Shown here one piece after another: positions 14,658-43,800 of a stretch of 64,000 bases of DNA. The stretch spans positions 6,277 through 70,276 of the forward strand of contig JAKSOW010000001.1 of the NCBI GenBank assembly GCA_024405395.1, in the 5' to 3' direction. The translations under genes and the position numbers were made by a program. Source of the stretch: Kiritimatiellia bacterium. GTDB lineage: Bacteria; Verrucomicrobiota; Kiritimatiellia; RFP12; UBA1067. Positions within the stretch are counted from its first letter, which is position 1; each line of letters begins with the position of its first letter. The notes under the pieces are model-generated. The model was not told where the DNA came from. It ran no database searches and saw only the letters and a program-made list of their open reading frames with translations.

Positions 14658-15055
14658 TTTTTTTCCTTTTTTAACCGGGTAGAATCCCGTGCCTTTACGA
14701 CGGTCGATCGTTTCCCAGATGAAAACCGCTGAGATATTCGGCCGGGCCACACTAGTATACCCGTACTTTTTTACAGGAGCTACCCTGATCTCTCACGCTT
14801 CGGGGCTGCATTCAGTAGCCCAGCACGTAACAATCTTTCGACCATTACTCCTAGGGTACTGGACTAATCCAGCCACCCTTCCACGGGAGAAACGCGCATA
14901 TCATATCAAAAGTCGTTTTGCCTTGCAAGTGGGAAATCAATTTTTTTTTCATTTTCTTTGTCACAACGCCACCAGGTGGATTTGCCTTGTAAGACTATTT
15001 AATGAGCGCACCATACACAATGCAAATGCAAAACTCTCTTGTTCATAAACAGAAC

Positions 15056-15279: not shown

Positions 15280-16149
15280 TTAGAAGATGATCTTGTTGAG
15301 CGGCAGCTCAATGATGCCAGTAGCGCCCGCCGCGCTCAGAACCGGAATCAAATCGCGCACCTGCTTCTCCTCGACAACCGACTCCACCGCGAACCAGCCT
15401 GCGTCATTGAGCTTGTTCACCGTGGGCGCGTGCAACGCCGGAAGCGCCGCCACAATCTTATCGAGCTTCTTCTCAGGCGCGTTGAGCTTGATGAGCACGC
15501 GCTTCTGGGCTTCAAGCGCCGCCACAAGCAACATCTTGATCTGCTCGATCTTCGCACGCTTCGCCTTGTTGGCCCACGCCTTCTTGTTGGCGATGAGGCG
15601 CGTCGTCGACGTAAGGATCGTGTCGACGATGCGAAGGTTGTTCGCACGCAGCGACGAACCCGTCTCGGTAAGATCGACGATTGCGTCCACCAGCTCAGGC
15701 GCCTTCACTTCCGTGGCGCCCCAGCTGAATTCGACATCGGCCTTGACGCCGTTCTTCTTCAGATAACGCTTCACGATGCCCAGGGCTTCCGTGGAGATGC
15801 GCTTGCCCTGAAGATCCTTCACGCTCTTGATCTTGGAGTCGTTCGGAACCGCGAGAACCCAACGAACCGGATTGGACGTGGCCTTAGAATAGTTGAGCTC
15901 GCAGACGTCCTCGACGTCCGAACCATTTTCGTACACCCAGTCCCAACCGCAGATGCCCGCATCCAGGAGACCCATCTCAACATAGCGGCTCATTTCCTGC
16001 GGACGGAGCAGGCGGCACTTGATCTCCGCATCATCAATCGTGGGGAAATAGGAACGCGACGAGCAGGAAACATTAAACCCTGCGCGCTTGAAAAGCGCGA
16101 AGGTCGATTCCTGAAGGCTACCCTTCGGCAGACCAAGAACAATTGCCAT
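15280..16149 (-). CDS. hisG: ATP phosphoribosyltransferase, long form with C-terminal regulatory domain
   Basis: 289 aa with typical HisG-long conservation throughout. The antisense track ORF 15124..16347 is rejected. Confidence 0.95.
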
Positions 16150-16247: not shown

Positions 16248-16829
16248 TCAAAGAGCCTGCAGCGAACGAAGCTCCGCCATTTCCGCACGACGTGCGCGTG
16301 CCCAAGCCGCCACATCGACTTCGGGCGGCAATGTGGGCGTCACATAAGGCATGCCGCATGTTGCGCAGCAGGCACCTTTGTTCAGCGGAGCACCACAAGA
16401 GGGACATCTCGTCTCAAGCACTTCGCCACAAATGGCGCACCGCTTGGCACCCACGAATGGCGCAGCCATGCCGGCAATCGGGCGGAGAAAAAGACGCCCC
16501 TCCAGCACATAGGGTGCATTCGAAAGGCAATGTGCGGACGGACAAAAGCCAATCAGCGCATCCGCAGGCAAAACCATGGAAGGCAAGGCGGGCATTGCAT
16601 TCTGGACTGCATCAGCCACTTTCTTGGCCGCGGGTTCCAAAGACACGCCCACTTTCTCGGCAAACTTCTTGATTACCTCTTCCGAGAGTTTTGTACCGTC
16701 TCCAGCTTCGAACATTGAAATGGCCGGCTGTTTGCAGCCAAGTTCACGCGCCAACGCGGACTGGGAAATACCCTGTTCGCGGCGTGCCTGGCCGATGCTG
16801 CGGCAAATCTCTGGAGAAATGTTCTTCAC
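16248..16829 (-). CDS. XRE-family HTH transcriptional regulator with C-terminal Cys-rich zinc-ribbon domain
   Basis: The HTH is GISQSALARELGCKQPAISMFEAG. C-terminal CxxC pairs (CAICG, CPSCG, CATCG) are present. Confidence 0.85.
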   Translation of the reverse strand: MKNISPEICRSIGQARREQGISQSALARELGCKQPAISMFEAGDGTKLSEEVIKKFAEKVGVSLEPAAKKVADAVQNAMPALPSMVLPADALIGFCPSAHCLSNAPYVLEGRLFLRPIAGMAAPFVGAKRCAICGEVLETRCPSCGAPLNKGACCATCGMPYVTPTLPPEVDVAAWARARRAEMAELRSLQAL

Positions 16830-16894
16830 GTTACGTCTACTTTCGTCGGACGGCTAATAGTATGCTCTTTTTTCCGCCCAAAAGCAAGCATGAG

Positions 16895-17001
16895 TTATAA
16901 ACAGTTATAAACAGCCTTATAAACAATATGAGTTATAAACAACCTTTCATAACCATGTTTATAACCTACTTATAAACAACTGTTTATAACCTTGTGTATA
17001 A
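16895..17001. promoter_or_regulatory. array of eight DnaA-box-like 9-mers (5 direct TTATAAACA, 2 inverted TGTTTATAA, 1 TGTGTATAA) in 107 bp; candidate oriC box cluster or operator array of the adjacent XRE regulator
   Basis: The boxes are at 16895, 16905, 16917, 16933, 16956(rev), 16970, 16981(rev) and 16993(rev). They match TTATNCACA at 7-8 of 9 positions. The array lies 1.4 kb beyond dnaN and 65-170 bp upstream of the XRE gene start. Confidence 0.5.
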
Positions 17002-17035
17002 GTTGTATATCCTTTGTTGGCTAAGCAATAACAAT

Positions 17036-17063
17036 GGGGCACATCTACTTGAGATAGTGCCCC
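17036..17063 (-). terminator. 7-bp stem hairpin (GGGGCAC...GTGCCCC) downstream of the methyltransferase gene
   Basis: The inverted repeat was read directly. The 14-nt loop and moderate U content in the flank make it weak. Confidence 0.25.
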
Positions 17064-17112
17064 AATGCGTCCAAAAAAGCCAGACGCTACAGTTTGTGCC
17101 AATCAAACCGGC

Positions 17113-18375
17113 TTATTCGCCTTTGGCCTTGCAGCCTGGATACACAAAGAGTCTGCAATCGATCGGTCCGTTGAAGAACGGCACGCGCGCAATGTAATAG
17201 AGTTCCACAAGCTTCGCAAGATCCGGGTTTCCGGTGATCAAGCCGCCCGTCATTCCCGCACACTTGTCATGCATGAACGTGCCAATGCGCGTATAGATCG
17301 GCTCCAGCTCGGCGGCATCGCCCAGACGAATGCCATACTCGGGATTGAAGAACACCACTCCGTTGGGTGAACTCTTGGAACAGTCAGCCTCAGGGTTCGC
17401 CAAAGGCGGCACTGGCGTGTCGCCAAAATCGCAGGCCTTGAATGTGATGTACTCGTTGACGCCCGCTGCGTGCGCATTGATCTGCGCATTCTGAACCGCC
17501 TCGGGAGAGATGTCCGTCGCGTAGATAGGCGGCAGATTGTCCGTCTTCTCGTTTTCGGCGGCCTCCAGGACCATATCCTTCCAGATTTGCTCGGGCGTGA
17601 CGCCAAAACGCTGACGCGGAGCCGAACGCGGAGCCGTTTCGCCGGGAATGATCTGGTTCCACCCCTTTATCGACATGAAGGCAAAACGGCTGCGCAACGA
17701 GCCCGGCGCACGGCCGATGGCGGCCAGTGCCGCCTCAATGGCCGGCGTGCCGGAGCCGCACATCGGGGAAATGAAAGGCGTCTTGCGATCCCACTTGAGC
17801 GCATCGATGCAGGCGGCCGCCAAGGTCTCCTGCATAGGCGCCGAGCCCGGAATCTTGCGGTAGCCGCGTTTGGAAAGCGGGGAACCGCTTGTATCCAAAT
17901 AGATGATCACACGCCGATCTTCCCAATGCACGAAAACGGCGGCACCAAGGTCATAGTCGGGACCCGAGTCCGGACGCCGCCCCACCTTGCTGCGGATTCG
18001 GTCGGCAATGGCGTCCTTGGTCACAAGCGCCGGCAGACGCGTATCGCGCACGGTGTCATTATGGACAATCGACGAAACCGAAAAATAGCCATCCGCATCA
18101 AAGAGGTTTTCCCAGTCAATGGAGGCCACCTTGTCGTACAATTCGCGGATATGGCGGCAAGTCCCCCGCAGGAGCGGCACCAGGACACGGTGTGCCGTGC
18201 GCAGACGAAGATTAAGGCGCAGCATATCCCGCATGGCACCGCGAACGACAACGGTGTTGTCACTCTTGTCGATCACCTTGTATCCCATGCCCTCAACTTC
18301 CTGAATCGTCCAGGGAGCCAGATGCTTGGCGCACGAAATGATGATGGGATAGTTCTTATCTGTCCACAGTTTCAT
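17113..18375 (-). CDS. THUMP-domain class I SAM-dependent RNA (m2G) methyltransferase, RlmL-N / Trm14-like
   Basis: The track ORF extends to 18528. Met52 (MKLWTDK) follows a perfect RBS AGGAG, verified. The SAM-binding motif is SPMCGSGTPAIEAALA. The NPPY-type catalytic motif is FFNPEYG. Confidence 0.85.
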   Translation of the reverse strand: MKLWTDKNYPIIISCAKHLAPWTIQEVEGMGYKVIDKSDNTVVVRGAMRDMLRLNLRLRTAHRVLVPLLRGTCRHIRELYDKVASIDWENLFDADGYFSVSSIVHNDTVRDTRLPALVTKDAIADRIRSKVGRRPDSGPDYDLGAAVFVHWEDRRVIIYLDTSGSPLSKRGYRKIPGSAPMQETLAAACIDALKWDRKTPFISPMCGSGTPAIEAALAAIGRAPGSLRSRFAFMSIKGWNQIIPGETAPRSAPRQRFGVTPEQIWKDMVLEAAENEKTDNLPPIYATDISPEAVQNAQINAHAAGVNEYITFKACDFGDTPVPPLANPEADCSKSSPNGVVFFNPEYGIRLGDAAELEPIYTRIGTFMHDKCAGMTGGLITGNPDLAKLVELYYIARVPFFNGPIDCRLFVYPGCKAKGE

Positions 18376-18423
18376 GGTATCTCCTACTAAAGGGCACCCT
18401 TTGGCCCGATATTTTGGACAAGA

Positions 18424-18456
18424 GGCATTCCAGAAGCGTTTTTCTTCCAGAATGCC
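18424..18456 (-). terminator. strand-specific 13-bp stem hairpin downstream of dnaN (perfect with two G-U wobbles on the minus-strand transcript, two C-A mismatches on the plus strand)
   Basis: GGCATTCCAGAAG-CGTTTTT-CTTCCAGAATGCC was read from the sequence. The downstream U-tract is weak. Confidence 0.35.
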
Positions 18457-18479
18457 CTTTATTTCAGCGAATATTACTA

Positions 18480-19574
18480 TCAGCTGATGCGCAGCGGCAT
18501 CATAACGTACAGGAACGGCACCGAACACTTGATCAATGCCGGCGAAGAGCCGTTCTTGAGCTCGATGTAGACTTCATCCTCGTCAATGGCCTTCAGCGGA
18601 TCCATCACAAACTGGGGATTGAAGACAATCTCGATCGTCTCGCCGTCATACTTGATCGGCACCGTATCACGGGCCGCACCCACATCGGCGGCGGCTGACG
18701 CCACGGTGAGGCGATTGGACTCAAACGTGAGACGCGTAGAATTGGACTCATCCATCGTCATGACGCTGACGCGGTCAAGGGCCTCCAGCAGAAGCTTGCG
18801 CTCCACGGTGACGCGCTCGGTGCAGCCGGTGGGGATGACCTGACGATAGTTGGGATAGACATCATCCAGAAGCTTCGAGTAGATCTGCGTGTCGCCCAGA
18901 TTGAAGGACACCTGCGAGCGTTCCACGGTGACGCGCACATCGCCATCGGACGAAAGCGAACGCTGAAGCTCGGAGACCACCTTCGTGGGGAGCACGATGT
19001 CCTTCTCCGCATCGGCGGGGAATTCGACCTCATGCTCGACCAAGGCCAAACGCCGCCCATCCGTGGCCACCATGGTGAGCTTCGCGTCCTTGAAGCTCAT
19101 CAGAACGCCCTTCAGGGTCTTGCGCGTATCGTCCTGCGAGGCCGCGTACGAGGTCTTGCGCAGCATTTCGCGAAGCGCCATCTGCTTGATGATGTAGGCA
19201 AACGTGCCGGAATCCTTGGGGAGCTGCGGGAAGTCGGCGACATTCATGCCGGCGATGTTGAACACGGCGGAACCCGCCGACACAACCGCCTTGTCCTCCG
19301 CATCGGTCTCGAGCTCAACGGGGCCTTCCGCCGCCTTGGCGATCGTGGCCGCCAAAAGCTTCACGGGGAGCGTGGTCGCGCCTTCAGCCAGCACTTCGCA
19401 GGGAACGACGCTGCGGATCGAAATGTCAAGATCCGTGGTGGTGAGGAAGAGCTGCTTGTCCTTCGCCTCGATCAGCACATTCTGGATGATCTGCAGTGTA
19501 CCCTTTGACACCACGATGTTCTGAACCTTCTTGAGGCCTTCCAGAAACTTGGAACGTATAATCCTGATTTTCAT
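18480..19574 (-). CDS. dnaN: DNA polymerase III beta sliding clamp
   Basis: 364 aa with a typical three-domain clamp sequence, immediately downstream of dnaA. Confidence 0.95.
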   Translation of the reverse strand: MKIRIIRSKFLEGLKKVQNIVVSKGTLQIIQNVLIEAKDKQLFLTTTDLDISIRSVVPCEVLAEGATTLPVKLLAATIAKAAEGPVELETDAEDKAVVSAGSAVFNIAGMNVADFPQLPKDSGTFAYIIKQMALREMLRKTSYAASQDDTRKTLKGVLMSFKDAKLTMVATDGRRLALVEHEVEFPADAEKDIVLPTKVVSELQRSLSSDGDVRVTVERSQVSFNLGDTQIYSKLLDDVYPNYRQVIPTGCTERVTVERKLLLEALDRVSVMTMDESNSTRLTFESNRLTVASAAADVGAARDTVPIKYDGETIEIVFNPQFVMDPLKAIDEDEVYIELKNGSSPALIKCSVPFLYVMMPLRIS

Positions 19575-19860
19575 TGCATGCTCCTGACACCATTTCGCCG
19601 GACAGTCCCGCTGTCAGCGATTCCTAAGATTGTACCTAATATTCCTTCTAAAGTAAAGAATGAATAATACTAATATTAGGTTGTTCAATAACTCCAATAA
19701 CTTCTTCAAGTACTGTAAAATCAAGGCCTGCGTGACTTTTCAGCTGTTCATTTCCCATTCAGTCGGATGTTCAGCGCTGTTGATGATTCGGCGGGCTTTA
19801 GACAACTGTCCACAAGTGGATGGGTTCTGCACAACTTCTCTACAGGGGATGAACAGATTA
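19575..19860. promoter_or_regulatory. AT-rich dnaA-dnaN intergenic region with DnaA-box-like elements (CTGTCCACA / inverted TCCAC-AA-GTGGA) and an AT-rich possible unwinding stretch
   Basis: The stretch taatattccttctaaagtaaagaatgaataatactaatattagg is very AT-rich for this genome. TGTCCACAAGTGGA lies at about 19800-19815. Confidence 0.35.
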
Positions 19861-21297
19861 TCATTCGAGGACGTCGGAGATCTGGCGGCCCAGCTTGGAC
19901 ACAATCTGGCCGATTTCCTGCTTGAGGTCGGCCTCGACGCTGATGCGCTTCTGGATCTGCTGCGAACCGTAGAAAATCGTGGTGTGCTTGCGGTCGAAGG
20001 CCTTACCGATCGTCGGCAGCGAATCCGTGGTGAGCTTGCACGCCAGGAACATCGCGACTTGGCGGGGCTGGACAAGGGCCTGGGTGCGTCCGGGCGCCTT
20101 GATGTCCTTCACCGTGACGCCGTAGTGCTCCGCCACCGCATTGATGACCGCTTCCGGCGTAATGCTCTTGATTGTCACTTCCTCCTCTATCATGTCCTTG
20201 AGGAGATATTTCGAGATCTCGATGGTGAGCGGCGTATCGGGATTGACGTCCATGAAGGTGGTTACCCGGTTCAGGGCACCTTCAATGGCCCGCACATGCG
20301 AACGGATGTTTTCCGCAATGTAGTTGAGGATATCGTCCTGGATCAGACGATGGCGGGCCTGCATCTTGGACCTGAGGATCGCCAGACGCGTCTCATACGA
20401 GGGGGATTCGATTTCCACCACCATGCCCTGCTGGAAGCGCGAGATCAGCCTGTCCTCCAGACCTCCCTGGAGCTCCTTTGGCGCCTGGTCGCAGGTCATG
20501 ACTATCTGCTTGTTGTACATGAGCAGACTGCTGATGGTGTTGAAGAATTCCTCCTGGAAGCTCTTCTTGCCGACGATGAACTGAACGTCGTCGATGAGCA
20601 GAAGATCGTATTTCCTGTAGCGGGCGCGAAACGCGGGAAGCGCCGCCCCGGCGAGCGCATTGACGTATTCGTTGAGGAACGTCTCGGACGTGATGTAGCA
20701 AACCGACGCCTCGGCATTATGCTTCATGACATAATGGCCGATGGCCTCCATCAAGTGCGTTTTGCCCAGACCTGTGCCGCCCCAGATGAAAAGCGGATTG
20801 TAGGCGGTCCTTCCAAGCCCCTTCGCAACGGCGGTAGCCGCAGCATGGGCGAAGGAATTTGACGGGCCCCTCACGAAGTTCTCGAACGTATAGTTCTCGA
20901 GGAGCGGCAGAGTGGAAGGCAGTACACGCGCACGCCGAGGCGTCGGAGCTTTGGGAGCCGGCTTTTCCGAATTGGTCTGAACGGGAAGAACGGGCGGAAC
21001 CTCTACGGTTTTCTTGGTTTCCTCTTTCTTGATGACCTCAAAGACCACTTTGATGCCATCCCCCAGACCTGCCGCCCGAATCGTCTCCTCCAGAGCCTTG
21101 GCGTAGAGCCCCGTGAACCAATCCCTCTTCATCTCCGTGGTGACGCCGATCCTGAATTCGCTGCCCACCAGACTCTGAGTGAGGAACTGAGGAGAATGCA
21201 GTTCCCAGCGATTGATTTCCTCAGTCGTTTTCAGGCTCATTCTGTAGCTGGAAGCGATGGCTTGCCAGACAGATGTAAGGTTGCTTGTTTCTGACAT
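19861..21297 (-). CDS. dnaA: chromosomal replication initiator protein DnaA
   Basis: Walker A GGTGLGKTHL, AAA+ sensor motifs and the C-terminal DNA-binding domain are present. The antisense ORF 19660..20862 is rejected. Confidence 0.97.
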   Translation of the reverse strand: MSETSNLTSVWQAIASSYRMSLKTTEEINRWELHSPQFLTQSLVGSEFRIGVTTEMKRDWFTGLYAKALEETIRAAGLGDGIKVVFEVIKKEETKKTVEVPPVLPVQTNSEKPAPKAPTPRRARVLPSTLPLLENYTFENFVRGPSNSFAHAAATAVAKGLGRTAYNPLFIWGGTGLGKTHLMEAIGHYVMKHNAEASVCYITSETFLNEYVNALAGAALPAFRARYRKYDLLLIDDVQFIVGKKSFQEEFFNTISSLLMYNKQIVMTCDQAPKELQGGLEDRLISRFQQGMVVEIESPSYETRLAILRSKMQARHRLIQDDILNYIAENIRSHVRAIEGALNRVTTFMDVNPDTPLTIEISKYLLKDMIEEEVTIKSITPEAVINAVAEHYGVTVKDIKAPGRTQALVQPRQVAMFLACKLTTDSLPTIGKAFDRKHTTIFYGSQQIQKRISVEADLKQEIGQIVSKLGRQISDVLE

Positions 21298-21435
21298 GAT
21301 CTTGTTGTCCTAGTGGACACTATTTAACCATATTTCCCGAACAAAACCACGCAAAAGAAATGAAAAGAAATGAACAAGTTGTGAACAGATACCTGTTCAT
21401 AGCTTAATGCAGGCTTTGCCTATCTGACTTGCGGA

Positions 21436-23775
21436 TCAGTGGAAGAACTTCCGCATTTCCTCTTCCGTGTGGCAGGCGAGCAGATCCTGAGCCCCATTTT
21501 CGCTGCGAAGCTTCGAGCTGATGTAGGCCATCAGCTGGAGATAAGGCGACTGGGCCGTCTCAGGCGCCAAGGTCAGCACAATGATCTGAATGACCGAATG
21601 ATCAATGGTCTCATAGTCCGCGATGATGCCGTTTGAGTTCTCCGTGTTGTCCACGATGGCCACTGCACCAACGATCTCGTCCACGGCATCGGTACGGCCA
21701 TGCGGCACGGCAATGCCATGGTCCAATCCTGTTCCCATGGATTCTTCACGTGAGAAGACGGCCTCCTGGGCAGTCTGCACATCCTTGACGTGGTTCCCCG
21801 TTGCGTTCTTGACGGCCAGAACAAGTTCCTCAATTGCCTCACGCTTCGAATTGGCCTTGAACTTGGGCAGCATCACGAAGTTCTTGAGGTTCTTGGCGGC
21901 AGATCCAAGCACCTCCTTCTTGTCGTCCTGCTGGATGATGAGCTTTTCGATTGTGCCCTTCTCCTGCACAGGCTTGGAAATAACCTGAGCCAGCTTGTTC
22001 ATCTGCGAGACGACTTCCATCCAGGCCTGACGCACGACCGCCTCTTCCTCCGGCGTGCAGAACACCTGGATCTCCTTGCCCGTGCGCGTAATGGAAATCT
22101 CAATCGAATCCATCGACACTTCCCAGATGTCAAGATTGATTTCACGCGCCAGACGGCAGGTGAAGAAACCTTCTCTACGGAATTCGTCAACCAGCTTTTT
22201 GGCCATGATGGCGGCGACCTGCATGTCAGGCAGCTCGAAGATTACCGGACGCGACTCCTGCATGTTTTCCTTCTGCTTGCGCACGCCCTTGCGGTCGCTC
22301 TTGAAGAGCGCCACCAAGGCAGGCGGGGCAACAACGGTCGTGATGAGCGTCATGAGGATGCCGATGCCGAAAATCTCCTGCGACAGATAGCCGTTCGAAA
22401 GACCAAGGCCGGCGATGATGAGCGCCACTTCGCCACGGGGAATCATGCCCGTGCCAATGCGCACGCCGCCCAGCAGATTGAATCCGCAGAACATGGCGGG
22501 AATGGCACAGCCCGCCACCTTGGCGAAGACGGCCAACACGGTGTAGATGGCGCCAAAGTAGAGAACCGGCTTCGACATCAACGCCGAGCAGTCCACCATC
22601 ATGCCCATGACGCAGAAGAACACGGGAACGAGGAACGTGTAGACGGGAGCCAGCGTTTCCTGGATCATGTGCTTCAGGTCCGTGCGCGAAAGGGCCAGAC
22701 CCATGACGTAGGCGCCAATGATCATGGCCAATCCCATGAACTCGAAGAACCCGGCGAGAATCAGCGAGAGACCAAATGCCAAGGTGGCGATGGCCTGCGG
22801 ATTCTTGAAGAGCTTGAGCAGCCAGGAGATCTTGCGGGCGAGAAGCACGCCCACCAACGTGGCGCCCAGCCAGACGCCGAAGGCCTTGATGGCGACAATG
22901 CCGATGGCGCCCCAATTGACGCCGGCACTGGCCTCTCCGCCCTTTGCCGCCGCAGCCATCGTCGCCGCGATGACGCCGTTGCCGATGGCCAGGACAATCA
23001 GACCCAGAACGTCGTCAATCACAGCACCGGCCATGATCGAGACGCCCTCTTCCGAATCCATCTTCTTGCGCTCCGAAAGGATGCGTGCGGTGATGCCCAC
23101 CGAAGTGGCGGTCGACATGATGCCCATGTACATGGGGGCCGCATCCATCATCGCCTGAGCCAGCGGCATGGAGGAAAGCGCACCGAACTTAGCCGGGAAG
23201 AACTGCGGCAGCAGATAGACGGCACAGAGGTCGCCGAACAGGAACGACACGATAACGCCGCCCAGGCCAACCATCAGGCCGACGAACGAATACTTGAGGA
23301 AGAGCTTGAGATTGGTCTCAAGGCCCGAAAGGAAAAGAAGAATCACGGACGCCAAAGTGGCGATGCCGTACAAGGCGGGGCTTGTGGCGTCGAACATGAC
23401 GTTGTGGCCAGCCATCGTGCCGAACATGGCCGTGGCCGCCCCACCCGCCGCCTCGTTCATGGCCCGCAGAGCGGCACCGTTGAAGAGACCGTATTTGAAG
23501 AGACCATCGCCAAACCCGATGCCGCCCAATGCCCACGGGCCAATGACAATGCCGGCGGCAAGTTCGCCAAGGATCGACGGCAGCTTGAAGAAGGAGATGA
23601 GGGTGCCGCCGAGTTTGGCGGCGAAGATGATGATGCCGATCTGCAGCACCAGGAACATCATTTCCTCTACACGGGGCAAACCAAAATTCGGGTAAGCGGG
23701 AGCAGCCTCATGCGCAAACACGCCCATCGCAACCAGTGAAAACGCGATGGCAAAAAACAGTTTCTTGTTTTTCAT
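21436..23775 (-). CDS. monovalent cation:proton antiporter (CPA2/Kef-like) with long cytoplasmic tail ending in a PTS EIIA(Ntr/fructose-type) regulatory domain
   Basis: There are about 12 TM helices with Gly-rich antiporter motifs. The C-terminal GIAVPHGRTDAVDEIVGAVAIVDNTEN...IQIIVLTLAPE matches the PTS_EIIA_2 fold with a phosphorylatable His. The antisense ORF 21790..23739 is rejected. Confidence 0.88.
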   Translation of the reverse strand: MKNKKLFFAIAFSLVAMGVFAHEAAPAYPNFGLPRVEEMMFLVLQIGIIIFAAKLGGTLISFFKLPSILGELAAGIVIGPWALGGIGFGDGLFKYGLFNGAALRAMNEAAGGAATAMFGTMAGHNVMFDATSPALYGIATLASVILLFLSGLETNLKLFLKYSFVGLMVGLGGVIVSFLFGDLCAVYLLPQFFPAKFGALSSMPLAQAMMDAAPMYMGIMSTATSVGITARILSERKKMDSEEGVSIMAGAVIDDVLGLIVLAIGNGVIAATMAAAAKGGEASAGVNWGAIGIVAIKAFGVWLGATLVGVLLARKISWLLKLFKNPQAIATLAFGLSLILAGFFEFMGLAMIIGAYVMGLALSRTDLKHMIQETLAPVYTFLVPVFFCVMGMMVDCSALMSKPVLYFGAIYTVLAVFAKVAGCAIPAMFCGFNLLGGVRIGTGMIPRGEVALIIAGLGLSNGYLSQEIFGIGILMTLITTVVAPPALVALFKSDRKGVRKQKENMQESRPVIFELPDMQVAAIMAKKLVDEFRREGFFTCRLAREINLDIWEVSMDSIEISITRTGKEIQVFCTPEEEAVVRQAWMEVVSQMNKLAQVISKPVQEKGTIEKLIIQQDDKKEVLGSAAKNLKNFVMLPKFKANSKREAIEELVLAVKNATGNHVKDVQTAQEAVFSREESMGTGLDHGIAVPHGRTDAVDEIVGAVAIVDNTENSNGIIADYETIDHSVIQIIVLTLAPETAQSPYLQLMAYISSKLRSENGAQDLLACHTEEEMRKFFH

Positions 23776-23875: not shown

Positions 23876-25843
23876 TTAGTGATGTCCCCTTTTGATGATG
23901 ATGGCCAGAACCGAAATGTCGGCAGGATTGACGCCCGGAATGCGGCCCGCCTGTGCCAAAGTCTCCGGACGATACTTCTTCATCTTTTCCCGGCTCTCAT
24001 ACCTGATGGCCGGACACTTGTCGTAATCCAGCCAATGGGGAATCTTGATGTTCTCGTCGCGCTTGGCCCGTTCGGCGGCAATGTTCTCCTGGCGAATGTA
24101 GCCGGCGTAGTGGTGACGGATTTTCACCTGTTCAACCACAGGATCAGGAACCTGAATGGAAGAGCCGCCGATTTCGATCTCGGCGTTAGGGTTACCGTCA
24201 GGCTGAACAGACAATACGCGTTTCAGCTTTTTGTTGTCCTGCTCGATGGTGTTGATCATATCGGCAAACGATTTGGTTTCCTCCCGAATGACCTTCGGCA
24301 GAATGCCTACCCTTTCCGCTGCTTCCTGCAGGCGGTAGCGGGCATTGTCCTGACGCAGGATCAGGCGGCGCTCGGCACGTGATGTGAACATGCGATAAGG
24401 TTCATCGGTTCCCTTGGTGACCAAGTCATCGATCAATACGCCAATGTACGCATCCTGGCGGCTGATCACAAGCGGGCTTTCATGCTTGACCTTGAAGGCG
24501 GCATTTATTCCCGCCATGATGCCCTGGGCGGCAGCTTCCTCATAACCCGTTGTCCCGTTGATTTGGCCGGCAAAGAACAGACCGGATATACGCTTGGATT
24601 CCAGCGAATGCGTCAGCTCACGGGCGTCAATTCCATCATACTCAATGGCGTAGGCATACGCAAGGAATTCGGCGTGCTCCAGACCTGGAACGGAATGGAC
24701 CAGTTCTTCCTGAACCTGACGAGGAAGAGAGTTGGATAGACCATTAGGATAGATGATCTGCCCTGCACGATCTTCGGGTTCAAGGATGACATGATGACCA
24801 TCAACACCCGCGAATCTGACTATCTTATCCTCAATCGATGGACAATACCTGACGCCCGTTCCACTTATCATTCCACCATAAAGAGATGAATCCTTAAGAT
24901 GCGAACGTATGATTTCATGGCTGATTGGCGTTGTATGGGTTGCCCAACAGATAGCTTTAGCGGAATTCAAAGGCCACGGAGCGAACAAATCCGCATTGTT
25001 CCACGTGGAACAGTCCGTTGAACTGGATTCTGATGCGGAATTGGCATTGTTCCACGTGGAACAAAGACCAGAAATGGGTTCAGATGAAGCTAAATCATGG
25101 TTGTTCCACGTGGAACAATTGATTCCGGGTGTTAAACCATGGGAAAGGAGGTATCTGGTTCTGAGGGAGAAATAAGGCGGATTATCCTCTCCTTCCTGCG
25201 GTGTACACACCGAAAAGTCGCAGCTTGATGCCTTTAAGCGTGGCGGTGTACCTGTTTTAAGCCGAATAAGCTGAAAACCGAGTTTGGAAAGCGAATCGGA
25301 TAGCTGATTGACGGCTGGCCGCCCATCTCCGCCAGATTCCGTGCATTCCTTGCCAATGAATATCCGCCCTCGCAAAGCCGTTCCGGAGGTTATCACCAAA
25401 GCCTCACAGTTGATCAGTCCGTTCTTCTCGGTTCTGATTCCGGTTACGGTGTCATGATTGGTTATCACCTCAAGGGCGGCATCCTCGATCACGGTCAGGT
25501 TTTTGGTGCTGTTGACAACCAACTGCATGCGCCGTGTGTATTCGCTCTTGTCGCATTGTGCTCGTGTTGCCTGCACGGCTGGACCACGGCTCAAGTTCAA
25601 TGTCTTTTCCTGGAGCGAAGTGAGGTCGGTGTTGAATCCCATTTCGCCGCCCAACGCATCCAACTCAAACACCAGATGACTTTTGGCAAGTCCGCCAATG
25701 GAAGGATTGCAGGGCATACGCGCAATGGCAGACTTGAGCCCCGTAACCAAAAGGGTGTCAATGCCCATGCGTGCAGCGGCCAATGCCGCTTCGGCTCCGG
25801 CATGGCCTCCACCAACCACAACAATTGAAAAATCTGTTTTCAT
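23876..25843 (-). CDS. mnmG: tRNA uridine 5-carboxymethylaminomethyl modification enzyme MnmG (GidA), carrying an in-frame insertion of about 55 aa
   Basis: The FAD-binding N-terminus is [20 protein letters not shown]. The insertion encodes CSTWNN three times (see the repeat feature). Confidence 0.95.
24996..25118. repeat. three copies of the 18-bp perfect palindrome TTGTTCCACGTGGAACAA (E-box CACGTG core) spaced 50 and 54 bp apart, inside the mnmG coding sequence
   Basis: Read directly at 24996-25013 (last base G), 25047-25064 and 25101-25118. Each copy translates on the coding strand as CSTWNN. Confidence 0.8.
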
Positions 25844-25936
25844 TGCAGATATTATAACATGCTTTAAGACAAAATATAAGAGATAACAGATAAAAGATAA
25901 ACGAGGGCCTCTGCTTTTCTCGATGAAATCTTTAAG

Positions 25937-26176
25937 ACAGGATTTACAAGATTAACAGGATTTAGAAGCCTGACCGATTGAGATAATTAATGTGGCGATT
26001 GCAAGTCGTGGTCGGTGGGTTCATTGAAACCAGTCCTGTCTGTTTAATAGGCGTAGGTTCAGGTAGGACAACATTGACGATGCCGCCGCTAATGAGATAT
26101 TGCAGTATCCTCAATAAATAAAGCAACATCGGGGAAATCCTGTTAATCCTGTTAATCCTGTCGGAAATCAGGATCT
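25937..26176. repeat. imperfect 28-bp inverted repeats (GACAGGATTTACAAGATTAACAGGATTT / AAATCCTGTTAATCCTGTTAATCCTGTC) flanking about 170 bp in the mnmG upstream noncoding region
   Basis: Read directly. The right arm contains a tandem ATCCTGTTA x2 and an extra ATCCTG/CAGGAT hairpin. No ORF lies inside. Confidence 0.3.
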
Positions 26177-27191
26177 GCTCTGTCAGTCCAGTTCTCAGTT
26201 AGTTTCCGTTAAGATTTTGACTGAAAAGCCCGCCAGTAGAATTCATCAGTCAAAAACCTGAATCGCCTAAGCAATCAAGGAAAGGGGCTGGAAAAATCCC
26301 GGAATCATGAGCGTCATATTCACCTCGACAAAGGAGTGCGTGATTTGAGAATTGAGGGCTAAAAGGCGAATGTGTCTTGTCCAATCATATCGAAAACATC
26401 GCGATTGAATTGTCCGGAAGGGTTCATTCTCAATCGTTTTCCGTGGCCGCCAGATGGCGGTTTCCGTGTCCTTCCATGGTCTTCTACCTGGCGAAACAAC
26501 ATTATTCAACATATCAAATAACTTCTGGCTTTTTGGGAAAATGCAGATGCATTTGCCATACTGGAGATCCTCTCGTTCCGCTAAAACTTCAATGATCAAA
26601 TGATCCGATGAGATTCACTATCAACAGTTATTCACATTTATGAAACGAGCGATTATGCGACAAACAGAAGAGGCCCAAGTACGGGAAACCTTGATTTTAC
26701 GGGCTTTTATGCTTGTGCCGAAAAAGTCAACAGAAAGATATGCAAAATACTGTCATAATTATGAACTACTTATGAACAGGTTTTAGGCAACGGTTCAGAA
26801 CTATTGACAGGTGATTTCTGCAATGTAATTCACATTATCGGCCCATAAGCATGGAAGGGCCGAATGTTATGACGGAAACGGAAAGGAAACCCCTTATGAT
26901 CTGGGGTGTGGTCGTCAAAACGGAACTCACCGTAGAGCATCATCCCCTGCGGCAAGGCTCAGTACCTGAAGCATGGGGATTTGGTATCAGAAGCAGGAAT
27001 TCGTAGTATCTGAGTCAAATGAAACGGTATCTGAGATGAATTCCATTGTCTGGGTAGGATTGCAGTACATGTTCCATGACTGTTTCATTTGGAATGTCGG
27101 AAAAGGGGCTGAAAGCGTCTCATCTCAGAGTGTAATGCGTTATGCGTCAAATTGGCGGCAACGGAGCAGTTGCGAATACAACAAATTAAAA

Positions 27192-27221
27192 TTGTATACA
27201 TATTAAAGGATATGCTATACT
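27192..27221 (+). promoter_or_regulatory. putative sigma70 promoter TTGTAT-N18-TATACT for the beta-helix gene; RBS AAGGAGGAAAG at 27239
   Basis: An AT-rich stretch sits at the GC transition. The hexamers were read from the sequence. Confidence 0.3.
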
Positions 27222-27252
27222 TTAAGCATCGTCAACCGCAAGGAGGAAAGAA

Positions 27253-37853: not shown

Positions 37854-40800
37854 ATGGGAAACTATGGTCTCAAATCCGGTTTGGGTGGCCGCCTTGCGGC
37901 TGCCCTCTGCCTGTTTGCGACGGCGGTGCACGCCGCCTCCGCGACCTTTTCCCATGATGCCAATGCCACGGTGGCCGATTCCCGGCGCCTGACGGAGGCC
38001 ACCACGATTGCCGTCGCCAAGGATGCGCGTGTCGTCTACTCCGGCGTGTTGTCGGGGCCCGGCTCGTTGCGGCTGACGGGTGGTGGCACGCTGGTGCTGA
38101 CGGGCGCCAACACGTTCACGGGCGGCGTCACGGTTGAGGCGGGCTACCTCGTGTGCTCCAACGCCTTGGCCCTGGGCACGGGCACGGCAACCATCATGGG
38201 CCAGCGGGACGACTATTCGGGCCCCTGCGAGATTGGCTTCTGGGGTGTTGGCCCCGGCCGTTCGGATTCGGTGACGTACGCCAATCCGATTCGCGTGACG
38301 GGCTCCTCGACGGCCCTCTATCCGGCGCTCTACTTCTTCGGGCAGAACTGCGTCCTGAACGGCAGCGTCACCGCCGAGCAGGACCTTGTCTTCTACGAAG
38401 ACCACAATGCCGCCAAATCCATCAATAGCGCCAACTGGGACCGTTATCAGCATGTGCTTTCGGCCACCTTCAACGGTCCGGTGACCGCCGCCGGAATGAT
38501 CGGCTATCGCGGCATGACGCGCTGGGCCTTCAACGGCAAGGTCACGACCCCGCTTTTCCACACGGCGCTCACGCGCCCGAAACGTCCGGACGACATTGAC
38601 TCGACTGACGGCAACAACAATGCCCATGGCGCCTTCCTGCTCAATGCGGCCAACGCCATCGGCGAATTCAGGAATGCGCGTTCGCCCGTTTACCTGGGCG
38701 TGGAGAATGCGCTTGCGGGCTCGGTCCTTTCCTGGGAGAAGAACACCTCGCTCTGCACGGTGGGCTTCTTCTACAGTCAGCTTTACGGCGGCAGCTACCG
38801 CAACCAGCGTGTGGCCGGGCTTTCCAGCGTGTCGGCACCCGTGGCGGCCAGCTACGATTGGCGGGTTCATGGCGCCTCTTCGGCGAATCGGTTTGTGCTG
38901 GCGGGCACAGGCGCAGCGGCGGAGACTTTCGCGGCCAGTGCCGCCCTCACGGGATCGATGTCCTTCATTGTGGATGCGAGGCCCGACTACTCGCAGACGC
39001 TTCAAGACCGCCACCACACGTTTTCGGGCACGCTCGCCGTCTCCAACGGAACCCTGAACGTGGAACGTGGTTCGTTCTCCAATGTGACGGCGCTTGTGGT
39101 GGGCGCACACGGCACCCTGCGCCTCGACACGCCGCTCTCGGGCGGGCAGGTCTTCCCCAAGCTGTCTTCGCTGGAGATCGTGAAGGGCGGTGTGCTGGCC
39201 GTGCCCGAAACCATGCTGCTCACCACGAAGACGCTCATTGTGAACGGCACGAAGAAATCGCCCGGTCTCCATTACGCCGAAAGCGTGCCCGGCTTCACGG
39301 GGGCGGCGATAGTCTGCCTCAATGCCGACGGCTCCATGCCGGTGGTGGGCGATCTGACGGGCGCTCAGACGATCCGCGAACCGTTTGCGGCTCTGGGTGA
39401 CCGCATGTGGCGGCTTGCCGCGGGCGAGACGCTCACGTTTGAGGGAACGCTTCGCCGTGTCGAGGGCATGGTCACGGTGGTGAGCCCCAAGAACACCGCC
39501 AATCCGGCACGCGTGGTGCTCAAGGGCACCAACTCGATCGACGGGGCGCTCGTCACCACGGCGGCGGTGCTGCAGGTCTCCGGTCTGCTGGCGAACTCCT
39601 TGCGTCAGGACCAGGGCCAGGCCGCCAATCGCGGCGGGAGTGTGGTCACGGTGGATGGCTATCCGGGGGGCGGCTATCTTTTCGTCTCCAATGCCGTCAT
39701 CGAAAAGCCGGTCTATCTGCATGGCTCGGGCTATGGCATTCTGAGGAGTGCCGCCGCCACCACCACCATCCTGAAGGGCCACGTCGCCTGGCCCACGCCC
39801 TGGCCCGGCTTTACGGCGGCGAAGGATTCGGAGATCGTCTTCGAGGGCGGCTTCACGAGTGGCCACACCCTGCGCACAAACGGACAGGGCACATTCCGTG
39901 TGCGCAATACGCCGGTGACGGCCACGGCGAGCGTGGGCTGGAACATCGGCGGCGGCACCGTGGCGTTGGATGTGTGCGGCAACAAGTTCAGCTATCTGTG
40001 CGCCGGGCACTACAACGGCGACACGGCGGCGATTGTGTGCAACGCCGATCGGGCCTTTGACGTCACCGCGAACGCGGGCCTGGTGAACGGCTGCTGGTGG
40101 AACGATGGCTACAGCGGATTCTCGGTGATGACGTCTGGCTCCGGAATCGTGGACCTGAAGGGCACGGTGCAGCAGGTGAACAAGTACGCGGGCAGCAGCC
40201 GTTCGACCCTGCGGGGCGAGGCGGGCGCCCGGCTGGAGATTCTCCAGCAGACGCCGGACTCGCGGCTCAAGGCCCCCGAGCTCTACTTCGCGTCCGCGAT
40301 CGAAGGCGAGGTGACGGTGGCGATGTACGGCCCCGGCAGACTCGTCCTCACCAACCGCGTATTTGAGACGACGGGCGGATTGGAGGCCACGAACGGCATT
40401 GTGGAGATTGCCCGGGGGGCGCGTTGGCTGGGCACGGGTGACGTGACCTTGCGTGGCTCGGCCAGGCTGGTGCTGCATGAGCGCGACCAGCTGGCCCCCT
40501 CGGTGCATCTGCGGATCGGTGAGGCGGCGAAGATCGAGATTCCCGCCGGCACGTCCCTGACGGTAAAGACCGTGGACGTGTGGGATGGCACGGGCTGGCT
40601 GCCGCTGAAGACGGCCGGCAGCCATGCGGCGGGCGACGGCGGTATGCTTGCGGGATTCATCACGGGCGGCGGCACGCTGAACATTGTTGGCGAAGAGGTC
40701 GCCGCAGGCGTGGCGATGCCGCTGGAGTGGAATGTCACCTATCCGGTGGATGTGCCGTATGAGGTGGAGATCGACACGGCCAAACTTCATGCGCTGGGCG

Positions 40801-43800
40801 GCATTGCCGCCAACACGGGCTTCCGTGTGTTCGCCACCGTGGCGGGCGCCATGCGCGAAGTGGGCGTCAGCTGTCTGGCGGGACGCGTCCCCGGCAGGGT
40901 CGCCCTGCGCTTCTCGGTGCCGGCCGGGACGACGGCCCTGACGTGTCGGGCGGGCGTGGGGCGGCTGGAGCTGCTGGACGCACAGACGGCCGACAATCTC
41001 TTTGCGGGCGTGTTGGCGTCCGCCACGGGATGGGTATGCGACAAGACCGTTTCCTGTGCTGTGCGCACGAATGGTCTGTCCATCGCCTCGACGGGTGCGG
41101 GCAACTATTATGCGAAGTGCAGCGTGCCCGTGCCCGCCGATTGGCGGGGCAAGAGCGTGCGCCTGGAAATCGACGCCACGAGCGAGAGCGTGCTGCCGTG
41201 GGGCGGCTTCATCCGCCTGTGGCAGTATGACGCCAACGGCACGCGCCTGCCCGAGAGTGTCTCCGATGTGCGTTGGACGAGTCACATGCGCCCGCCGGAG
41301 AAGCTCGCCCAATATCGCGAGAATGGCCGCATCCATCCAGACTGTGCCACCGTGGAGGCGCGTTTCGAGGTGCGGGGCACGTCGACGGCCTTTGACCTCT
41401 ATGGTCTGCCGCTGGCGGATGAGGAGGACACGAAGGCCCGCCTGCTGGTTTCGCGTCTGGTGCTGCGGCGGGCGGCGGAATTGCCGTTCCCGAAATATGA
41501 CGACCGCTTCTTCTCCGCGGGCGTCTCGGGGGATGCGGGCGATACGGCGCTTCGCCTGGGCGGCGAAGACCACAACGGCTTCTTCTACGCCACGCACAGC
41601 CAGGCGGTTTGGAGCGAGGGAATGGATTCGCGTGATGAGGCGCAGAATTTCTTCCCGGCGGGAGATGGCACCGTCGAGGCGTGGTTCAGGGCCGATGCCT
41701 GGCCAAGCAAGGAGACGTATCTCTTCCAGGGGTTCCAGGGCTACTCGGCCCAGAAGTCCGCCAATGGGCGAAGCGAACTCTTCTCGTTGCGGTACACGCA
41801 TTCCTCGAAGCGCCTTTACCTTTATATGAAGGATCGGCAGAACACGGTGTTCTCAGCGCAAGCCACACAGGCGCTGCCGGTGGGCGAGTGGGTGCACATC
41901 GCCGCCCAGTGGAGCGTCAACGGCCAGGCCAGGGTCTTCGTGAACGGCAAGGAGGCGCTGGCACGCGACATCACGGGCTTCAGGCCGGTTGACCTCAGTG
42001 CCGAGCAGTATCCCGATGAGGAGATTGTGACGGAGTTCTTCCTTGGCTCGACTTCCGCCTCGGCCCGCAACACCGAAACGGCGGAGAATGCGGGCGCGCC
42101 TTTCTTCCAGGGGGCCGTGGATCAGCTGCGCGTCTCCACGGGCACGCGCTATGCGGGCGCGTTCACGCCGGCCAGACGTCATGTGCCGGATGCCGCCACA
42201 CGTGCGCTCTTCGCGTTCGACCGATCCTACGATGGCGAGTCGGGCGGCGGATGCCGATTCATCCGCGGTTCGATCCGCTCGTTTGCGGACCGTGTGCGGC
42301 ACACGCTTGACCTTGGCGGCAATGAGGTTCCGTACTGGCCCGCCGAGATCCTGCCCGAGAACGACCACCGCCAGGTCCTGAACATCGACAACTATCCCGA
42401 TCTGCCGACGGTGGACGAATTCCTCTCGGCCCGCCGAGCCACAAATGCGGTCTTCGATGTCTCCCCGGGCGCCACGTTCACGTTGAATCTTCCGGGCACG
42501 GTCTACCGCGACTACGTGGAGATCGCGAACACGGGAACATCGCCGCTGCTCTACCCCACGGTCGTCAACGCCGGCGAGATCGATCCCCGCAGCTTTGGCG
42601 ACATCCGCGACACGCTGGGGCTGGCCGAGCTGGATGATCGGGCATGCGCCAACAAGATTTTCCAGTTCGTGCTGGGCGCAAGCGACTACTTCATGAACCA
42701 CAGCGCCTTCTTTGCGCCCGGCACCGACACGCCGGGCGATGTGGAGTACCAGGCACTCATGATGCTCAACGGCTACTGCGGCTTCGAGTGCGGCCCGCTG
42801 AACAGCATGACGAAGAATCTCTTCACCTGTTCGGGCGGGCTGCCCTCTTCGCAGACGGGCGGCTATGGCCACAGCTTCGAGCAGGTGTTCTATGACGGCA
42901 AGAACCACATCTACGATCTGTCGGCCCAGAAGTTCTTTCCCGCGATGGACAACGAGACGGCGGCCTATCTTGAGGAAGCGGGCGATCAGCCGGGCATCTT
43001 CCACCGGATCGGCGGCAATCCCGACCACTTCATCCGCAAGTCCCGCCGTGGTGCCGATGCGTCTTCGCCGTCGTTCAGCGAGAAGGTGGCGATGAGCCTC
43101 AATCCTGGCGAGCGCCTGCGCGTGTGGTTCGACAATGACGGCGAAGGCAACGACCTCCAGTGCAGCAAGAGCTCCGTGCAGAACGATTCCGCCCTCCACA
43201 AGGAGAACTACGACGACCGCTGCCATGCCGTTGCGGGATCGGCCGGCAGCATCTGGCGTGTGCACCGCCACTTCCCGCACTACGGCAATGGATTCCTCGT
43301 GTACGAAGGACCGGTGGATGTGGCGAATCCCGCCTTTGCCGCCTCGACGAAGTCCTCTGCCGTCTATGCGGTGAAGAGCTGCTATCCCATCACCGCGGCC
43401 GAGTACTCGGCCAAGCTGCAGGATGGCACCTATGCGCCAATGCAGCTCTCCACCGACAGGGGCGCAACCTGGCGTGCGCTGCCGGCTGGCAAGGTGCGCT
43501 ATCCCGTGCGTGCGCGCACCGAATACCTTGTGCGGGCGATGGCAGATCCCGCGAAGGTCGTGCGTTTCTCGGCCATCACCGAGGTGCAGGTGAACGTGCG
43601 CATCTTCACGGGCGGCGTGCACGCCGGGGCCAATGCCCTGACCTTCAAGGCCAATGGCGGAGAGGCGGCTCGCGTCACGCTGGGCTGGCGTGAGCCGGCG
43701 AAGCGCCTGGAGATCCGGGGCGGCGTCTATTCGGGCACGATCCCCGGCAGCGAACGGCAGCTCGTGCTGCTTGATCCGGCCAGCACGCTGACGCTTGACG

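Follow-up and report, generated by a model that had tools for sequence, protein, structure and literature searches.

An array of DnaA-box-like 9-mers coupled to the promoter of an XRE/zinc-ribbon gene near dnaA-dnaN in a Kiritimatiellia bacterium

The dnaA-dnaN region of a gut or rumen Kiritimatiellia bacterium, within the 64,000-nucleotide stretch of contig JAKSOW010000001.1 analysed here (the window), contains a dense array of 9-mers that resemble DnaA boxes. It occupies 107 bp (16895-17001) between a hairpin that follows an RNA methyltransferase gene and the start of a gene for an XRE-type regulator with a zinc-ribbon domain. The locus raises the question of whether this array is the chromosomal origin of replication (oriC), as the original prediction proposed, a set of operators for the adjoining regulator, which it offered as the alternative, or a site of another kind. 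The reading that we favour, with a probability of roughly 0.55, is that the array is an origin-proximal DnaA-box cluster placed on the XRE promoter rather than an origin core, and that opening of the DNA would take place in the dnaA-dnaN spacer.

The motif scan bears out the prediction of eight 9-mers, five direct and three inverted, within 107 bp: seven are exact copies of TTATAAACA and one is TTATACACA, with five on the + strand and three on the - strand. The boxes are far beyond chance, and the observation is confirmed as real. With up to one mismatch allowed, TTATAAACA has 12 matches in the 64 kb against 3.48 ± 1.53 in shuffled sequences, and 8 of these 12 lie inside the array. Exact TTATNAACA has nine matches in the window against 0.72 ± 0.87, a count reached by none of 100 shuffles; seven of the nine fall in the array, and the two others are intergenic, at 15040 and 26770. 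The array has the highest box density of the window.

The individual boxes are arranged in pairs of several kinds. Boxes 1 and 2 (16895-16903 and 16905-16913, both +) form a tandem with a 1-bp gap that is kept in the relatives read base by base; box 1 is the promoter-proximal half of this conserved pair and ends 7 bp before the -35 element of the XRE promoter. Box 3 (16917-16925, +) follows, and box 4 (16933-16941, +) forms an inverted pair with box 5 (16956-16964, -), at a spacing of 23 bp start to start that is kept in five close relatives (L001-L005). Box 6 (16970-16978, +) makes a perfect palindrome with box 7 (16981-16989, -) across a 2-bp spacer. Boxes 1 to 7 are all TTATAAACA, and box 8, TTATACACA (16993-17001, -), is the sole box of the array that matches the classical TTATNCACA exactly.

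Relatives for comparison were gathered by a DnaN scan, which yielded Kiritimatiellae metagenome-assembled genomes (MAGs) from rumen, horse and human gut. Six close relatives (L001-L006) have DnaN proteins 71-89% identical to that of the window, and the remainder are distant Kiritimatiellia and Opitutae at 38-45%. The gene order gidA, exchanger, dnaA, dnaN, methyltransferase, array, XRE is kept in all six close relatives. An array between the methyltransferase and XRE genes is present in about twenty contigs (L001-L006, L081-L084, L086, L089, L090, L092-L098 and L104). More distant members encode shorter XRE proteins, 44-50% identical, which still follow dnaA-dnaN-methyltransferase, and the genes downstream vary.

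The boxes of these arrays are consistent with recognition by DnaA. In the six close relatives they read TTATAAACA, TTATCAACA or TTATTAACA, and in L081 and L082 the canonical TTATGCACA and TTATTCACA stand in for TTATAAACA at homologous positions. Among 47 exact TTATNNACA boxes upstream of XRE in 10 genomes, position 5 is A in 27, C in 14, T in 3 and G in 3. Like the classical DnaA box TTATNCACA (PMC8287927, PMC10721633), the motif is thus a 9-mer with invariant TTAT and ACA and a free position 5. It differs at position 6, where the classical C is replaced by A in 42 of the 47 boxes (C in 4, G in 1) and in seven of the eight boxes of the window, giving a clade consensus of TTAT-N-(A>>C)-ACA. Both the freedom at position 5 and the exchange with canonical boxes are as expected of a DnaA box.

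The same motif recurs at other sites of the origin region. In 94.7 kb of the six close relatives, all 36 exact copies of TTATNAACA fall into four intergenic clusters, located upstream of gidA, in the dnaA promoter, in the dnaA-dnaN spacer and in the array. Upstream of dnaA in the window, an inverted pair (21379-21402) is formed by CTATGAACA (-, 21394-21402) and TTGTGAACA (+, 21379-21387), 15 bp start to start. This spacing is kept in relatives with TTATCAACA or TTATGCACA boxes, the pair being TTATCAACA/TTATCAACA in L003 and L005, TTATGAACA/TTGTGCACA in L081 and TTATGCACA/TTATGAACA in L082. A third cluster, the second-densest of the window, lies upstream of gidA (26618-26834, +) and comprises six co-oriented boxes, CTATCAACA, TTATTCACA, TTATGAACT, TTATGAACA, CTATTGACA and TAATTCACA. 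Within it, the tandem pair TGTTCATAA-GT-AGTTCATAA (reverse complement of 26759-26778) recurs upstream of gidA in L002 and L006, together with a TGTCGCATAA element. Because the same box type is found at the dnaA promoter and in a DnaA-trio module between dnaA and dnaN, the 9-mers are best read as the DnaA boxes of this clade, and they very probably represent a lineage-specific spelling of that box. The likeness to DnaA boxes noted in the original prediction therefore stands, on the free position 5, the interchange with canonical boxes and the presence of the motif at the dnaA promoter and spacer; the step from that likeness to oriC itself does not.

The array is also tied to the XRE gene. A sigma-70-type XRE promoter is predicted on the - strand (16859-16887), with a -35 element TTGCTT (16887-16882), a 17-bp spacer and a -10 element CATACT (16864-16859). 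This assignment comes from conservation only, the promoter being kept in aligned relatives as TTGnnn-N17-(C/G)ATA(C/A)T; a scan of 16700-17200 with strict promoter and terminator consensus patterns called nothing. In all 17 relatives read base by base, the array closes, in gene orientation, with a tandem TGTTNATAA-N-TGTTNATAA followed after 7-8 bp by TTGnnn. This distance is unchanged by an extra gene between the methyltransferase gene and the array (L082, L084), by 0.3-0.8 kb of GC-rich tandem and palindromic repeats in the same interval (L002, L003, L006) and by leaders rich in repeats, about 200 bp long, that separate the XRE promoter from the start codon (L086, L089, L096). The boxes sit upstream of the -35 element and not over the promoter. 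The physical coupling of the array to this predicted promoter is, on the evidence of these alignments, real and strict. The repeat stretches themselves span 12435-13350 in L002, 12419-13000 in L003 and 12437-12900 in L006 (for example CTTGATTTGTTCCGAACAAATCAAGC).

Whether the array could itself be an origin core depends on its flanks. In the unwinding module of an origin core, a single box or tandem boxes are separated by no more than 16 bp from three or more DnaA-trios, with an AT-rich stretch beyond them (PMC8287927). The basal unwinding system comprises co-oriented boxes in tandem, a short spacer and at least three DnaA-trios whose middle A, on the opposite strand, is conserved (PMC8287927, PMC10721633). 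A cluster of what are very probably the organism's own boxes is present, with eight in 107 bp and the motif also in the dnaA promoter and the dnaA-dnaN spacer. However, no module of box, spacer and trios was found flanking the array on either strand in the window or in L001, and the few box-plus-trio matches at the arrays of other relatives are overlaps with neighbouring boxes. The polarity of such a module, 5'-TTATCCACA-spacer-(NTN)n, derives from the E. coli R1/13-mer region. Because the outer boxes of the array point inward, neither flank has the polarity of a basal unwinding system.

A candidate module is found instead in the dnaA-dnaN spacer, 2.7 kb from the array, at 19656-19700 on the - strand. 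It consists of the tandem boxes TTATTGGAG (19700-19692) and TATTGAACA (19690-19682), an AC spacer, eight NTN triplets (CTA ATA TTA GTA TTA TTC ATT CTT, 19679-19656) and an AT-rich stretch; in linear form, from 19700 to 19656, it reads TTATTGGAG-TTATTGAACA-AC-triplets. Its tandem co-oriented boxes, short spacer and NTN (3'-NAN-5') triplets, with about 12 bp from the first box to the trios, resemble the basal unwinding system (PMC8287927, PMC10721633). The same spacer carries the one-mismatch boxes TCATCAACA (19778, -), TTGTGGACA (19807, -), TTCTGCACA (19825, +) and TTCTCTACA (19836, +), over a span of 19778-19844.

This module is conserved. Tandem boxes, a 2-3 bp spacer and 5-9 consecutive NTN triplets are present in 7 of 10 clade genomes, and the remaining three have 3-4 NTN triplets when read by eye. 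Examples are TTATCGACA-GTATCGACA-GAC-CTA CTT ATA CTA TTG... in L003, TTATCTACA-GTATGAACA-GCC-CTA ATA TTA TTA TTA TTC in L005 and TTATCAACA-TAATCGACA-GTT CTA TTA ATA CTA... in L006; position 6 of the spacer boxes in the clade is A, G or T. In distant Kiritimatiellia the dnaA-dnaN spacer holds a textbook origin: three reverse TTGTCCACA boxes precede a tandem ATGTCCACA-CTGTCCACA, which GGAC separates from the triplets ATA CTG ATA, and an AT-rich stretch comes last. The module of the window's clade aligns with this canonical tandem TGTCCACA module. When the upstream part of the ten dnaA-dnaN spacers, excluding the AT-rich end, was searched de novo for enriched 6-mers, GTTATC, TGAACA, TCGACA, TCAACA and AACAGG came out at 11-21 times background. 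Unwinding is thus likely to take place in the dnaA-dnaN spacer and not at the array. The proposal that the array is a candidate oriC was not borne out, given that the array lacks an unwinding module and the spacer holds a conserved one. The array does lie outside the dnaA-dnaN spacer, as the original prediction had it, but its placing of oriC outside that spacer conflicts with the conserved tandem boxes, trios and AT-rich stretch found there.

One close relative helps to separate the two elements. On L085 (contig JAEEGL015610583.1, 6380-10012; DnaN 89% identical), the methyltransferase gene is followed by neither XRE nor array, and a convergent dehydrogenase-like open reading frame (ORF) takes their place; its dnaA promoter still has the boxes, and its dnaA-dnaN spacer the tandem boxes with trios. 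Because L085 has the dnaA-dnaN module without the other two, the array and the XRE gene appear to form one separable unit, and an origin core may exist at this locus without both, with the caveat that L085 is a metagenome contig.

The altered spelling of the boxes is accompanied by changes in DnaA. Base-specific contacts of E. coli DnaA domain IV are reported for R399, P423, D433, H434, T435 and H439 (PMC2533591, PMC7561715). When domain IV of the window's DnaA is aligned to the B. subtilis and E. coli domains, R399, P423, H434 and T435 are kept and two of the six contact residues are changed, D433 to K and H439 to Y, so that R-K-H-T-T-I-F-Y stands against R-D-H-T-T-V-L-H in E. coli. DnaA of L001 has an additional P423Q change, other members of the clade have KTHATVHH, RNHTTVMH, REHTTVLY or KKHATILH, and the distant Kiritimatiellia with TTGTCCACA boxes have RNHATVLH. 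Across the clade, domain IV is 43-79% identical to that of the window, against 71-89% for DnaN. Judged by these alignments, the recognition helix is unusually variable, and domain IV is unusually fast-evolving in this clade.

Several observations weigh against the favoured reading or limit it. The boxes of the window's module are degenerate, with two mismatches each, and a relaxed box-plus-trio pattern also matches about six other places in the window, mostly intragenic; for these reasons the case for the module is built on where it lies, on its conservation and on its homology to the canonical module. Sites cannot be told apart by AT content, which is 78% over 60 bp in the array, 77% in the trio region and 77-78% in the AT-rich stretches at 25842 and 27176, one at each end of the 1.4-kb gap upstream of gidA. 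Nor can GC skew, taken over a 64-kb window of uneven GC content, separate 16.9 kb from 19.7 kb. No single DnaA residue tracks A versus C at position 6, residue 433 being K, T, N or E in the clade and N in the distant users of TTGTCCACA; since no one substitution follows the C-to-A change, we can only infer an altered specificity, namely a preference of DnaA for A at position 6. L085, as a metagenome contig, could be chimeric, or XRE and array could lie elsewhere in its genome. Finally, XRE and array always co-occur, for which reason the XRE protein may also bind the array.

The cumulative GC skew of the window drops steeply from 1 to 15 kb, stays level between 16 and 25 kb, where it has its minimum at 23-24 kb, and rises from there on. 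This sign change across the plateau agrees with an origin in the neighbourhood. The GC content of the window changes in steps, from 39-53% over 1-15 kb, through about 44-60% over 15-27 kb, to 56-68% beyond 28 kb, and the first 15 kb have a strong negative GC skew of about -0.2. Such stepped GC content is unusual within one contig and is a caveat for any skew argument.

Among the alternatives, the proposal that the array is oriC proper, where DnaA assembles and the adjacent DNA opens, draws on the dense, mixed-orientation, 78% A+T cluster and on its position inside the skew plateau, less than 3 kb from dnaA. The lack of a trio module on either strand in the window or L001, the inward-pointing outer boxes, flanks that consist of a terminator hairpin and a promoter, the well-conserved canonical module 2.7 kb away and the missing array in L085 make it highly improbable. 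The motif could also belong to the XRE/zinc-ribbon protein as autoregulatory operators, with the likeness to DnaA boxes being coincidental or resulting from competition with DnaA. Array and XRE gene are always together, both are gone in L085, and the array adjoins the XRE promoter; palindromes such as 16970-16989 are typical of helix-turn-helix (HTH) dimers, and an XRE-type HTH fold of the kind found in SinR, HipB and C proteins is confidently predicted for the protein. Regulator sites that overlap DnaA boxes at origins are known, an example being those of Spo0A in B. subtilis. Operators of this kind would be expected to be confined to the promoters that the regulator controls, to overlap them and typically to be palindromic. 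The motif, however, also occurs at the dnaA promoter, in the dnaA-dnaN trio module and upstream of gidA. L085 retains it, although the 10 kb examined there showed no XRE gene, and the boxes of the array lie upstream of the -35 element instead of over the promoter. Four tandem direct copies at a pitch of 10-16 bp (16895-16941) are unusual for XRE dimers, and a free position 5 and interchangeability with canonical TTATGCACA are hallmarks of DnaA boxes. We therefore consider the operator reading distinctly unlikely; it is not supported as the primary explanation, though the coupling to the promoter is real.

A split origin deserves somewhat more weight and is still unlikely. In such an arrangement the array would be a required second or third part of the origin, and DnaA bound at array and spacer would loop out dnaN and the methyltransferase gene, both parts being needed for opening, in the manner of oriC1 and oriC2 in B. 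subtilis, H. pylori and C. difficile. The array is the densest and most consensus-like cluster, with eight boxes against five one-mismatch boxes in the dnaA-dnaN spacer, and since the spacer boxes of the window are degenerate, a nearby high-affinity anchor is plausible. Origins that carry the unwinding element on one of their parts are established (PMC7561715), and the clusters upstream of dnaA and gidA fit a multipartite layout. Known split origins nevertheless flank dnaA, not dnaN and another gene; here dnaN and the methyltransferase gene stand between the array and dnaA, on whose upstream side just an inverted pair is present. The array is fixed to the XRE -35 element but can be anywhere from about 2.6 to about 3.5 kb away from the spacer, and L085 has the spacer module without an array. 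Dense intergenic consensus boxes set apart from the unwinding site are what characterizes DnaA-box clusters outside an origin, and this description fits the array.

If the array is an origin-proximal DnaA-box cluster, its function may be pictured as follows. DnaA oligomers would assemble head-to-tail on the tandem pairs, as in datA, and head-to-head on the inverted pairs, as in the DARS core. DnaA bound at about -44 to -62, and at the boxes beyond, would tune the transcription of XRE, which might then track the level or nucleotide state of DnaA. The eight strong sites would also hold DnaA near the origin and so act as a DnaA sink, like the DnaA-box clusters of B. subtilis and datA of E. coli. 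Opening of the DNA would most likely occur 2.7 kb off, at 19656-19700 in the dnaA-dnaN spacer.

Counterparts of such a cluster are known from other bacteria. In B. subtilis, DnaA binds stably at eight intergenic box clusters and regulates sda, ywlC and yydA (PMC2533591). The array resembles these clusters outside oriC in its dense intergenic consensus boxes near the origin, adjoining the promoter of a non-replication gene; in both, stable binding is expected to depend on how dense the boxes are and how tightly they bind, and a dual role as sink and transcriptional switch is likely. It differs in the A at position 6, in an XRE/zinc-ribbon target without Bacillus counterpart and in lying just 2.7 kb from the presumed unwinding site, and binding of DnaA to it is a prediction. 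The E. coli datA and DARS loci (PMC5742627) are likewise non-coding DnaA-box clusters near the origin that act on DnaA and are not the start site, a role that is predicted for the array; datA and DARS are not anchored to a promoter, whereas the array is. A mark of datA is an IHF-binding site between its boxes; neither an IHF nor a Fis site was seen at the array, where no search aimed at such sites was made. The bipartite oriC of B. subtilis, H. pylori and C. difficile (PMC7561715) shares with this locus the presence of several clusters, just one of them, here that in the dnaA-dnaN spacer, with trios and an AT-rich element. In contrast to these origins, the array lies beyond dnaN and the methyltransferase gene and not upstream of dnaA, is fixed to the promoter of another gene and is absent at the locus in one close relative.

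A more far-reaching reading, which we regard as doubtful, is that in this uncultured gut clade DnaA recognition has drifted to TTATNAACA, with changes at D433 and H439, and that the XRE protein is a lineage-specific regulator of replication or the cell cycle wired to DnaA via the array. Either XRE expression would read DnaA occupancy, or the XRE protein would compete with DnaA for boxes at array and origin. If true, this would be a feedback circuit with a logic like that of DnaA-sda or Spo0A-oriC in Bacillus, built from unrelated parts. Should the cluster, on the other hand, be no more than a sink for DnaA or a common promoter under DnaA control, it would extend the Bacillus and E. coli findings in a routine way.

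For Kiritimatiellota, and for the larger part of the Planctomycetes-Verrucomicrobia-Chlamydiae (PVC) group, replication origins and the control of DnaA are essentially unmapped. A full-text literature search for the 9-mers returned unrelated papers only, and a search for Kiritimatiellaeota together with oriC returned nothing relevant. Three features are new. The boxes carry A at position 6, the recognition helix of DnaA has changed alongside, and a box array is strictly coupled to an XRE/zinc-ribbon gene of an unstudied family that accompanies dnaA-dnaN throughout a clade of family rank. A testable box variant paired with natural substitutions at two base-contact residues can help to explain how position 6 is read by DnaA. 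To origin-prediction tools built on TTATCCACA, the array boxes would be two-mismatch sites. The probable unwinding module of the clade is located as well, and the case is of use for origin prediction in PVC bacteria. In abundant rumen and gut bacteria, the XRE family is a candidate for connecting the initiation of replication with the control of genes.

The XRE protein itself combines an N-terminal XRE-type HTH with a C-terminal domain in which eight invariant or nearly invariant cysteines form a double zinc ribbon. Its 114 homologues all come from similar metagenomes, and one of them, annotated as from a Kiritimatiellae MAG, is identical to the protein of the window. Wherever the gene is present in relatives, it is downstream of dnaA-dnaN-methyltransferase. 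The AlphaFold model is confident (mean predicted local distance difference test score, pLDDT, 84.8). Foldseek searches with it matched the N-terminal HTH only (SinR, HipB, C proteins, MBF1) and gave no lead on the zinc-ribbon half, and neither the homologue nor the fold searches found a tie to a known replication factor.

The genomic context given in the original prediction (the distance to dnaN and the neighbouring methyltransferase, XRE and hisG genes) is correct by gene coordinates, the array starting 1.48 kb past the end of dnaN. On the - strand lie hisG (15280-16149), the XRE-type (HTH_3) regulator gene with its C-terminal eight-cysteine double zinc ribbon (16248-16829), a THUMP/RlmL-like RNA methyltransferase gene (17113-18528), dnaN (18480-19574), dnaA (19861-21297), a gene for a Na+/H+ exchanger-EIIA fusion (21436-23775) and gidA/mnmG (23876-25843). 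The inverted repeat search placed a hairpin with an 11-bp stem after the methyltransferase stop (17032-17067, -), and the array lies between it and the start of the XRE gene. The hairpin is probably a terminator that parts the dnaN-methyltransferase transcript from the array; the strict terminator scan passed over it. Taken at its longest, the methyltransferase ORF shares 49 bp (18480-18528) with dnaN. Because most relatives align only from about residue 52, its true start is probably further downstream.

Upstream of gidA, a 1.4-kb interval (25844-27231) between gidA (-) and a DUF1565 gene (+), within which gene orientation switches, gave no convincing ORF, Rfam match or tRNA. In it AATCCTGTT is repeated directly three times (AATCCTGTTAATCCTGTTAATCCTGT) and, some 200 bp from these repeats, ACAGGATTT occurs as two inverted copies (26136-26161 and 25939-25963); these elements could be sites at which some DNA-binding protein acts near the origin. 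The Rfam and tRNA scans covered the whole window and had no hits, and known RNAs were rejected on this ground as an explanation of both the array and this 1.4-kb gap. A reading of the array as plasmid or mobile-element iterons was dropped in view of the gidA-dnaA-dnaN synteny conserved across the clade.

In the spacer downstream of hisG, two overlapping opposite-strand boxes at 15040-15051 (TGTTCATAAACA, composed of TTATGAACA and TCATAAACA) provide one of the two exact copies of TTATNAACA that are not part of the array. Two very long ORFs on the + strand lie where the GC content of the window is high, at 37854-48383 (3509 amino acids) and 49537-55584 (2015 amino acids), which may encode giant surface proteins or be artefacts of high GC content.

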